Positions 14,064 to 14,939 of a stretch of DNA of 40,000 nucleotides are shown piece by piece. The notes under the pieces were generated by a model, which saw only the letters and a program-made list of their open reading frames with translations, did not search any database and was not told where the DNA came from. The DNA comes from Chloroflexota bacterium (GTDB lineage Bacteria > Chloroflexota > Anaerolineae > UBA4142 > SHND01). The stretch is from assembly GCA_004295045.1 (NCBI GenBank), contig SHND01000030.1:110223-150222 (forward strand), given 5' to 3'. The position numbers were made by a program, and so were the translations under genes. The number at the start of each line of letters is the position of its first letter. Positions within the stretch are counted from its first letter, which is position 1.

Positions 14064-14939
14064 CTATTTTATATTTGCATTGATAATGGCTTCCATTGCC
14101 GTTTCGAGAGTCTTACCTGCAAAGTCTCTGATTTCGCTTAAAACGGTATTACCTGCTTTTTGAAAAATTTCTTCTTTTCTCTTTAACTCTAACGATTTTA
14201 TAGGATTTTCCTTTTCCTTAACTGCTCTTTTGATAATCGTGAATATTACTCGAAGTTTTTCTGCGATTCCTTCAGCAGAAAAACCTTTGAAGGTAACTAC
14301 AATATGTTCTGACGAGCGCACATCATTGAAAATAACCAAACAAGGAAATTTGGAAAATTCGATATTGAATATATTTGCAATATTGATACTGTAGCCTTTT
14401 GTAACATGTCCTTCAACTGTTGATATCCAAGATTTATCTTCGAAATTTGGGCGTTTAATTCCGCTGTCGCCAAATGTAAGAACCAAACAATCGTCTCCAG
14501 AAATCAAATCAAGTTCTCTTCCATACTCTTTGAGGTAACGAAGCGATTCTCTGTCAGACGGAAGAACAAGGAGAATAGCATAAGTTGAATATTTACCGTG
14601 ATTTCGCAAGATATTATGCCACCACTCTCTCATCAGTTGAATGTTCTTCACGTCGGAAGGAGGGTATGTGTCAACAACAAAAGCAGATTCAAAACTTTCG
14701 AATTCTCTATTGAGTTTCTCTGCAAGATATTCTAGTTCTTCCAGCATACCTTGCATTTTAGAATGCCACTGCTCATATTCTTCTGGAAATTGACTTCTTT
14801 GGGGTATCCCGTATTCGGCGAATGTAGTAAAGATTTTTGAACGAAGAGAATGAATTTCATCCTGAATAAGATTATGGGTCGCCTTCATTTGTGAAAGTAA
14901 AGACCTGCCAGCGTCTTCAACACTGAGTAAAATTGGCAT
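14064..14939 (-). CDS. Orphan integron-cassette protein, 291 aa, function unknown
   Basis: Intact ORF with SD GGAG 8 nt upstream. Very AT-rich (sampled lines about 25-35% G+C). Helical N-terminal third, then a mixed alpha/beta region (YAILLVLPSD...DCLVLTFGD...CLVIFND). No family recognised. Confidence 0.7.
   Translation of the reverse strand: MPILLSVEDAGRSLLSQMKATHNLIQDEIHSLRSKIFTTFAEYGIPQRSQFPEEYEQWHSKMQGMLEELEYLAEKLNREFESFESAFVVDTYPPSDVKNIQLMREWWHNILRNHGKYSTYAILLVLPSDRESLRYLKEYGRELDLISGDDCLVLTFGDSGIKRPNFEDKSWISTVEGHVTKGYSINIANIFNIEFSKFPCLVIFNDVRSSEHIVVTFKGFSAEGIAEKLRVIFTIIKRAVKEKENPIKSLELKRKEEIFQKAGNTVLSEIRDFAGKTLETAMEAIINANIK

Follow-up and report, generated by a model that had tools for sequence, protein, structure and literature searches.

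A putative conflict module with a predicted thioredoxin-like tail in the first cassette of a Chloroflexota integron

WXG100 proteins fold as helical hairpins, which pair into four-helix bundles and which type VII secretion uses as its recognition element. In uncultured bacteria, chromosomal integrons store vast pools of uncharacterized genes, many of which have recently been shown to be compact defense systems. In the conflict systems of multicellular bacteria, adaptor domains termed EADs couple effectors to NTPases (Kaur et al. 2020, PMC7159879), and an organism with EADs typically has several proteins that share one such domain (PMC7159879). Here, we describe a gene located in a 40,000-nucleotide stretch of a Chloroflexota bacterium genome (GenBank assembly GCA_004295045.1, contig SHND01000030.1, positions 110,223 to 150,222), which is referred to below as the window and within which all coordinates of the locus are given.

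The gene encodes a protein of 291 amino acids (aa) and was found to be a single-gene cassette in the first position of a complete integron (Table 1). With function judged from architecture and context only, we read it tentatively, and with a little less confidence than doubt, as a putative self-contained conflict module that would act in defense or competition. The family to which it belongs recurs as the cargo of single-gene cassettes, and its swapped heads link it to type VII secretion, STAND ATPases, and caspases.

Domain architecture and the tail family

The protein comprises an N-terminal head, a Pro-rich linker, and a tail made up of a core and a helical extension. A first-pass annotation, made from the sequence alone, had described it as an orphan without an assignable motif, helical over its N-terminal ~110 aa and alpha/beta thereafter. 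The order of structural elements agreed with the AlphaFold2 model of the full-length protein (mean pLDDT 87), a model of the tail only (79.5) gave the same order of secondary structure over that part, and no match above threshold was obtained in Pfam, NCBIfam, PADLOC, or PHROGs. The orphan status did not hold, as 285 clusters were matched at E ≤ 1e-3, and 153 at E ≤ 1e-30, when 1.84 billion representative proteins were searched exhaustively with HMMER; a word-indexed search recovered six relatives only. Nor did the lack of motifs, as both the head and the fold of the tail could be assigned.

Nearly all of the 285 clusters aligned to residues ~95 to 291 only, and the tail was left blank by all four curated collections. 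When PADLOC was run over 150 relatives, only fused radical SAM, CHAT, and HTH parts were matched. By sequence comparison, the tail domain is an unnamed family lacking a curated model. Among the 150 aligned members, it was at or near the C terminus in every case, with five members extending 12 to 185 residues beyond it.

When the full-length and tail-only models were searched against the PDB with Foldseek, a check that the first-pass annotation had proposed, the top 50 matches were all thioredoxin-fold proteins. The best match was the non-catalytic b' domain of PDILT (probability 0.97, E 0.028, TM score 0.58 on the target), and thioredoxins also made up most of the top matches in BFVD. Two more helices followed alpha3 in both models. 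The profile of the tail alignment gave only noise against solved structures (E ≥ 0.09) and reached no solved thioredoxin. Because of this result and the weak Foldseek E values, the thioredoxin-like fold of the modeled tail is rated as probable, not proven.

At least 90% of the 150 members share W106, W107, L124, L126, D129, Y135, E142, C151, L152, G182, P199, F204, R230, and F233. P199, conserved in 149/150 members, directly precedes the strand at residues 200 to 204 in the predicted model. We take LPSD (126 to 129) to occupy the place of the CxxC motif, and F-P-C (198 to 200) that of the cis-Pro loop, of the thioredoxin fold; thus, the canonical active-site face would appear to be conserved. 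Neither CxxC nor CxxS is present in the protein, where LPSD stands at that place, and its two Cys residues, C151 and C200, are 49 residues apart. C200 was kept in 134/150 members and replaced by Ala or Ser in 15/150. Scanning of the 291-aa protein with Pfam and NCBIfam produced no thioredoxin-family match even at E ≤ 1.

For the head, matches to WXG100 models at residues 16 to 85 (Pfam PF06013; NCBIfam TIGR03930) were below threshold, with that to PF06013 at E 2e-4 and 22.0 bits, under the Pfam gathering cut-off of 27.3. The heads of orthologs matched WXG100 at up to E 4.8e-9, and a profile of eight heads, compared with solved structures, matched EsxB (4j41) end to end at E 2.7e-6 (positions 1 to 85), followed by other ESAT-6-like proteins. 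In the model, helices span residues 2 to 43 and 51 to 87. At the turn, the window copy has a degenerate WXG motif (Y-G-I), with W-x-G kept in the orthologs P0004, P0005, P0010, and P0015. Taken together, the sequence comparisons identify residues 1 to 90 as a WXG100 domain.

Most members carry other heads, and in more than 100 of the 150 the head is shorter than 80 aa, often Pro-rich and in some cases with zinc ribbons. WXG100 heads were observed in seven to eight members and YukD plus HINT or pretoxin-HINT heads in three to four; hence the same C-terminal domain is found behind different trafficking and pretoxin modules (WXG100, YukD plus PT-HINT). The remaining heads were radical SAM/SPASM (two), Prok-RING (two), and vWA, DnaJ, and HTH (one each), and in one member a CHAT protease domain is C-terminal to the tail. 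A STAND-type AAA fusion was present in L036, with only weak, sub-threshold AAA_35 matches in L035 and P0017; receiver-like heads scored below threshold throughout. In a FastTree phylogeny of the tail domain, the window protein grouped with three WXG-headed orthologs (support 0.99), inside a group with helical heads of ~100 aa, and another WXG-headed member was placed elsewhere, among short-headed forms. This topology fits head swapping across the tail family, but support for the deep branches of the tree is weak. As a separate observation, a Gly/Ala/Val-rich motif (e.g., GAVAGAVGSVAA, GNVIGAAVGIGAQV) was noted in the short heads of P0040, P0054, P0066, P0075, P0101, P0118, and P0126, which are stand-alone members whose heads are otherwise unrelated.

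The family is sparsely distributed. One copy was found in the host genome and one in an Anaerolineales metagenome-assembled genome (MAG), the latter being the single locus recovered by a pattern search of 185,579 species representatives. In a sample of the host phylum, 2/401 genomes matched, the host itself included. The MurE encoded in the window shares 49% identity with its counterpart in the Anaerolineales MAG, about as much as with that of a genome from the host class, a weak sign of an Anaerolineae-type Chloroflexota host. No relative was found in the plasmid and phage collections or among the IMG/VR viral contigs, and a phage or plasmid origin of the tail family is not supported.

The cassette and its integron

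The boundaries of the cassette were defined by the attI core upstream of the gene, the Shine-Dalgarno sequence within the cassette, and an attC site, attC1, that begins 10 nt past the stop codon (Table 1). The open reading frame (ORF) therefore forms a single-gene cassette of 1,047 bp (14977→13931) in first position, with the attI core on its 5' side, its own attC on its 3' side, and an integron-type integrase adjoining, in line with the first-pass assignment of an intact ORF next to attI. Overlapping ORFs were all ≤58 aa, and neither a transmembrane segment nor a signal peptide was predicted in the protein sequence. The direct repeats of the attI region are likely to be integrase-binding sites. 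A Pc-like promoter, recognized by consensus match only, lies in the spacer between intI and attI and is directed into cassette 1, which fits good expression of the gene.

Table 1. Positions of the 291-aa gene, its predicted domains, and the surrounding integron features in the window
Feature	Position	Strand	Description
ORF, complete	14064..14939	-	291 aa, 33.6 kDa, pI 5.8; exact protein on at least 23 contigs
Head, residues 1-90	14670..14939	-	WXG100-type (ESAT-6/EsxB-type) helix-turn-helix hairpin, by profile comparison
Pro-rich linker, residues 91-99 (TYPPSDVKN)	14643..14669	-	Coil in model; part of family-wide 'PPxD..' stretch before the tail
Tail core, residues 100-241	14217..14642	-	Probable thioredoxin-like fold (model): alpha0, beta1-alpha1-beta2-alpha2-beta3-beta4-alpha3
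C-terminal helical extension, residues 242-291	14067..14216	-	Ends in conserved amphipathic helix ...AGKTxETAMEAxI...
Shine-Dalgarno GGAG	14948..14951	-	8 nt 5' of ATG, within cassette 1
attI core GTTAGCC	14972..14978 (read 14978→14972)	-	Left edge of cassette 1
attI region	14983..15038	.	Two direct repeats, GATTATACCGCAACC / GATTATACGGCATCG (repeat family D4)
Pc-like sigma-70 promoter, predicted	15065..15092 (15092→15065)	-	TTGACA-16 nt-TATACT, 11/12 positions, consensus match only
attC of cassette 1 (attC1)	13925..14053	-	129 nt, perfect GGCTAAC/GTTAGCC ends, hairpin fold
Integron integrase intI	15130..16089	+	319 aa; TIGR02249 460 bits vs cut-off 265, full length; PF00589 + PF13495
Cassette 2	13099..13847	-	mazE 13605-13847 (PF04014), mazF 13259-13600 (PF02452), attC 13099-13234

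The ORF is AT rich, with a G+C content of 36.5% and 30.5% at third codon positions, against 52.6 ± 3.9% for 876-nt windows of the 40 kb. No window of the same size in the 40 kb had a lower G+C content. The first-pass annotation was thus right about the direction of the bias and too low in its figure of 25 to 35%, and the recent acquisition that it had concluded from the composition was not supported by the orthologs. The closest of these, L059, with 68% protein identity to the window protein and dS of ~1.3 between the two genes, lies in another integron as a cassette whose boundaries are homologous to those of the window copy and whose attC is of the same family, and the orthologs are likewise AT rich (36 to 45% G+C). 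By these comparisons, low G+C is a trait of a long-lived cassette lineage rather than the mark of a recent arrival, and it is not a clock.

Comparison with the same ortholog gave dN/dS values of 0.15 overall, 0.08 for the tail, and 0.36 for the head. On this measure, the gene is under purifying selection, which places it far beyond a chance ORF. The identical protein was always found in the arrangement intI-ORF-mazEF on its contigs, which come from about ten samples.

Cassette 2 (826 bp) is the toxin-antitoxin pair that the first-pass annotation had recognized, and its closing attC belongs to the same family as attC1. It is context and lies outside the 291-aa protein's own system.

Other features were noted around the array and in the host genome. 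Directly after the attC of cassette 2, a third ORF (12707-13081, minus strand, 124 aa) has no family match and no attC behind it; its G+C content is host-like (0.51), it carries a copy of the attI direct repeat (13048-13062), and it may be the array end or an attI remnant. At 12531-12589, in the interval separating the third ORF from the region where the next large gene starts, an inverted repeat was noted, its 23-nt arms being 96% complementary and its loop 13 nt long. Matches in the host genome to the conserved attC arm AACGGTTTGCGTTACNNGCG were found at G000:C2:24638-24657 and C19:19029-19048 and also on C30 and C61. They were isolated, with one to two mismatches, and the reversed control gave none; they could be solo attC sites or clusters of cassettes without an integrase.

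Genomic context of relatives and type VII secretion

Related loci were collected in a search seeded with a closer set of 11 sequences, and most of the contigs carrying relatives were short. The strict RYYYAAC attC search misses the window attC, and hence a looser pattern was used. Since this detector was noisy in G+C-rich DNA, with 27 matches in 263 kb of shuffled sequence, attC sites were counted only when they had canonical cores and were either repeated in the locus or similar to the window attC. On this basis, at least seven members were found as single-gene integron cassettes: the window copy, L002, L009, L032, L037, L059, and L061. L009 and L037 have attCs on both sides, as does L032, where they belong to the same family as the window attC. 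L059 shares the cassette boundaries and attC family of the window copy and is preceded by an attC, not by attI.

The survey of homolog neighborhoods that the first-pass annotation had proposed thus turned up integrons, and it also turned up defense-type islands. In L038 (6469-8591), a caspase gene (PF00656) overlaps the start of a 303-aa member by 16 nt, and the two could form a protease-effector pair of the kind described previously (PMC12642450). L008 has the order DUF4365 (nuclease-like), Band_7, family gene, and HTH/AAA_16, with a KAP NTPase nearby. Elsewhere, GmrSD and HNH endonucleases were found near a member at one locus, a P22-type antirepressor in L043, and Rce1-like proteases at two, and a HigB-like toxin-antitoxin pair and RadC adjoin a YukD-HINT member, with no type VII genes within 5 kb. 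An all-against-all blastp of 134 neighboring ORFs from 22 loci clustered only the family itself and revealed no conserved partner. No immunity gene was found in the seven single-gene cassettes.

Two arrangements of repeats were observed at related loci. In L005, from the Anaerolineales MAG, a stand-alone member lies between perfect 24-nt direct repeats (GCTGGTGAATGGGCAGGTGAAGGT; 5874-5897 and 6655-6678, 781 bp apart), with further repeated intergenic modules at the locus; the unit is cassette-like without an attC. In L002, a small cassette is duplicated in tandem at 122-1451 (period ~662 bp, 82 to 94% identity) in the array that also holds the family member.

The WXG100 head raised the question of a type VII system. 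In the host genome, which is 92% complete, no other WXG100 gene, no YukD, and no multi-domain FtsK ORF were detected, and the FtsK matches were only to FtsK-sized or small FtsK-domain ORFs. Three small ORFs (305 to 372 aa) with partial FtsK/SpoIIIE domains were noted there (G000:C2:161585-162031, C33:30998-31447, and C14:54890-55204), one of them ~11 kb past the end of the window. In a sample of the class, WXG100 was above the cut-off in 23/151 genomes (host included), and in the five class relatives that were checked, the WXG100 genes were on contigs with multi-FtsK (EssC-like) ORFs of 1,300 to 2,900 aa. WXG100-headed ORFs of 300 to 685 aa were common in the class relatives. The head's system would therefore exist in the lineage and not detectably in the host. 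None of the family members, the YukD-HINT form included, was seen to adjoin a type VII gene. A separate curiosity in one class relative (G338:C7:31369-37608) is a single open frame of 2,949 aa, amid WXG100 genes, in which FtsK/SpoIIIE domains were matched at least seven times; the usual EssC/EccC ATPases are about half this size.

Weighing of the readings and comparison with known systems

As a conflict module, the protein would have as its conserved working unit the ~190-aa C-terminal domain, that is, the predicted thioredoxin fold without CxxC plus the helical tail. The head would be an exchangeable handle, here a WXG100 hairpin, through which the protein may dimerize and, in a host owning a type VII machine, could be exported. 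The tail would target a protein or peptide through the thioredoxin active-site face (LPSD, the putative cis-Pro-Cys, and the WW helix), probably by binding rather than by redox chemistry. As no type VII genes were detectable in this host, the protein is most likely retained in the cytoplasm here, as a banked or stand-alone conflict module. Any defensive or toxic effect is putative, and an anti-phage function would be plausible.

Several observations weigh against this assignment. The WXG turn is degenerate and the head score under the Pfam cut-off in this copy, and PADLOC 2.0 had no match for the 291-aa protein. The fold comes from predicted structures only, with weak Foldseek E values (0.03 to 1). 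Defense-type neighborhoods were few, by plain count about 6/10 informative contigs. The J-domain, RING, HTH, and radical SAM fusions are no better suited to an effector than to a module for substrate recognition. Finally, the conserved residues could equally be architectural, with S128/D129/E131 capping a helix and E142 and R230 paired in a salt bridge; the near-invariant D129, Y135, E142, and R230 could then all be structural and the domain a passive scaffold.

A serious rival is a passive binding module of the PDI b' type. Here the tail would be a non-toxic domain that binds a client, peptide, or ligand, acting as an orphan immunity protein or inhibitor in its stand-alone form and, in fusions, as the end of an enzyme that recognizes substrate or senses. 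The best structural matches are indeed non-catalytic, substrate-binding b' domains of PDI-family proteins, one of which has a C-terminal 'x' region that caps the binding site, and CxxC is absent from the tail. The fusions place it where a substrate- or ligand-binding domain is usual (J-domain-X, RING-X, HTH-X, radical SAM/SPASM-X, AAA-X, and Ubl-HINT-X), and a harmless binder explains cassettes with a single gene and no partner. However, a generic client binder would not usually show such strong conservation of the active-site face (LPSD, FPC, and WW), an immunity protein would not be expected to have a WXG100 head or a CHAT or caspase partner, and the tail is single-copy per genome, unlike multi-copy adaptor domains. 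We consider this reading doubtful on balance.

A polymorphic toxin secreted by the type VII route (LXG/WXG type), with the head as the export signal and the tail as an undescribed enzymatic toxin against competitors, appeared unlikely. The architecture suits it, with the WXG100 domain N-terminal and the tail at the extreme C terminus, as do the relatives that carry YukD plus pretoxin-HINT immediately ahead of the same tail and the class relatives with WXG100 beside multi-FtsK ORFs and with long WXG100-headed ORFs. However, a classical secreted toxin is weakened because the seven cassettes, single-gene in each case, contain no immunity gene and the secretion genes are missing, both from the host and from beside every family member. 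The 22 loci shared no conserved neighbor, most members lack the export head, and no clear catalytic constellation was seen in the tail.

The remaining candidates were rejected. An EAD-like homotypic adaptor is unlikely because the tail is single-copy in both the host and the Anaerolineales MAG, as opposed to the several EAD proteins per organism. An ordinary redox thioredoxin or DsbA-like housekeeping protein, in a cassette by accident, shares the predicted fold and is nevertheless very improbable, given the lack of CxxC or CxxS, the wide spacing of the two Cys residues and the replacement of C200 in some members, the failure to match any thioredoxin family, and the rare, patchy distribution of the family. 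A spurious or decaying ORF carried as a passive integron passenger, for which the missing curated match and the degenerate WXG motif might speak, is effectively refuted by the 285 homologous clusters, the dN/dS of 0.15, the confident fold prediction, and the intact Shine-Dalgarno sequence and start codon.

A broader form of the conflict-module reading, for which the probability is low, is that the redox-dead tail with its predicted thioredoxin fold constitutes a new and self-sufficient effector domain of immunity or conflict, deployed alone as a one-gene cassette or joined to STAND ATPases, caspase/CHAT proteases, ubiquitin-like-HINT modules, and WXG100 carriers. If so, bacterial immunity would gain a new output module, built on a fold that had no previous link to defense. 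Should the tail act as an effector or bind a target specifically, it would be a new conflict-system module and the first function for the thioredoxin fold there, and the integrons of Chloroflexota-type bacteria would bank parts of secretion-linked toxin systems. If a phenotype is absent, the 291-aa protein stays a well-described conserved hypothetical protein. In either case, the former orphan is now a defined object, a family of ~285 clusters with a predicted fold and sharp motifs.

Compared with the WXG100/LXG type VII effectors (EsxA/EsxB and the LXG toxins of Bacillota), the protein has the same N-terminal WXG100 hairpin of ~90 aa in front of an unrelated payload at the C terminus, heads recombine with tails, and some relatives carry a pretoxin-HINT in between. 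In contrast to those effectors, it is encoded without immunity or helper (Lap-like) genes, in a host with no EssC/YukD locus, which was also absent beside the relatives examined; its tail has a predicted thioredoxin fold and is not a nuclease, NADase, or lipid II phosphatase, and its gene is an integron cassette.

The domains b' of PDI and PDILT, ERp44, and Wind/ERp29 have the beta-alpha-beta-alpha-beta-beta-alpha topology without a redox motif that is predicted here, and the C-terminal segment of the tail could cap the domain as the 'x' region of PDI does. The resemblance is distant, with ~10 to 15% sequence identity and Foldseek E values of 0.03 to 1. The tail is bacterial and most likely cytoplasmic, not of the endoplasmic reticulum, and its sharply conserved LPSD, FPC, and WW motifs are absent from b' domains.

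With the NTP-dependent conflict systems of multicellular bacteria (PMC7159879, PMC8195603), the family shares its partners (STAND ATPases, caspase/CHAT, vWA, RING, and HINT), a patchy spread in Chloroflexota-type environmental bacteria, and modular swapping of heads and tails. Unlike EADs, the tail is single-copy per genome, and it is mostly stand-alone. No thioredoxin-fold or WXG-linked module is mentioned in either description of these systems (Kaur, Burroughs, Iyer, and Aravind 2020, PMC7159879; 2021, PMC8195603), and no published description of this tail family was found in a limited literature search.

The defense cassettes of sedentary chromosomal integrons (bioRxiv 10.1101/2024.07.02.601686) provide the remaining comparison. 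The present cassette differs from them in that no PADLOC model is matched and the host is probably an uncultured bacterium of the Anaerolineae type, not Vibrio. Like them, it is a compact single-gene cassette with a toxin-antitoxin cassette adjoining, and its cargo is recurrent.

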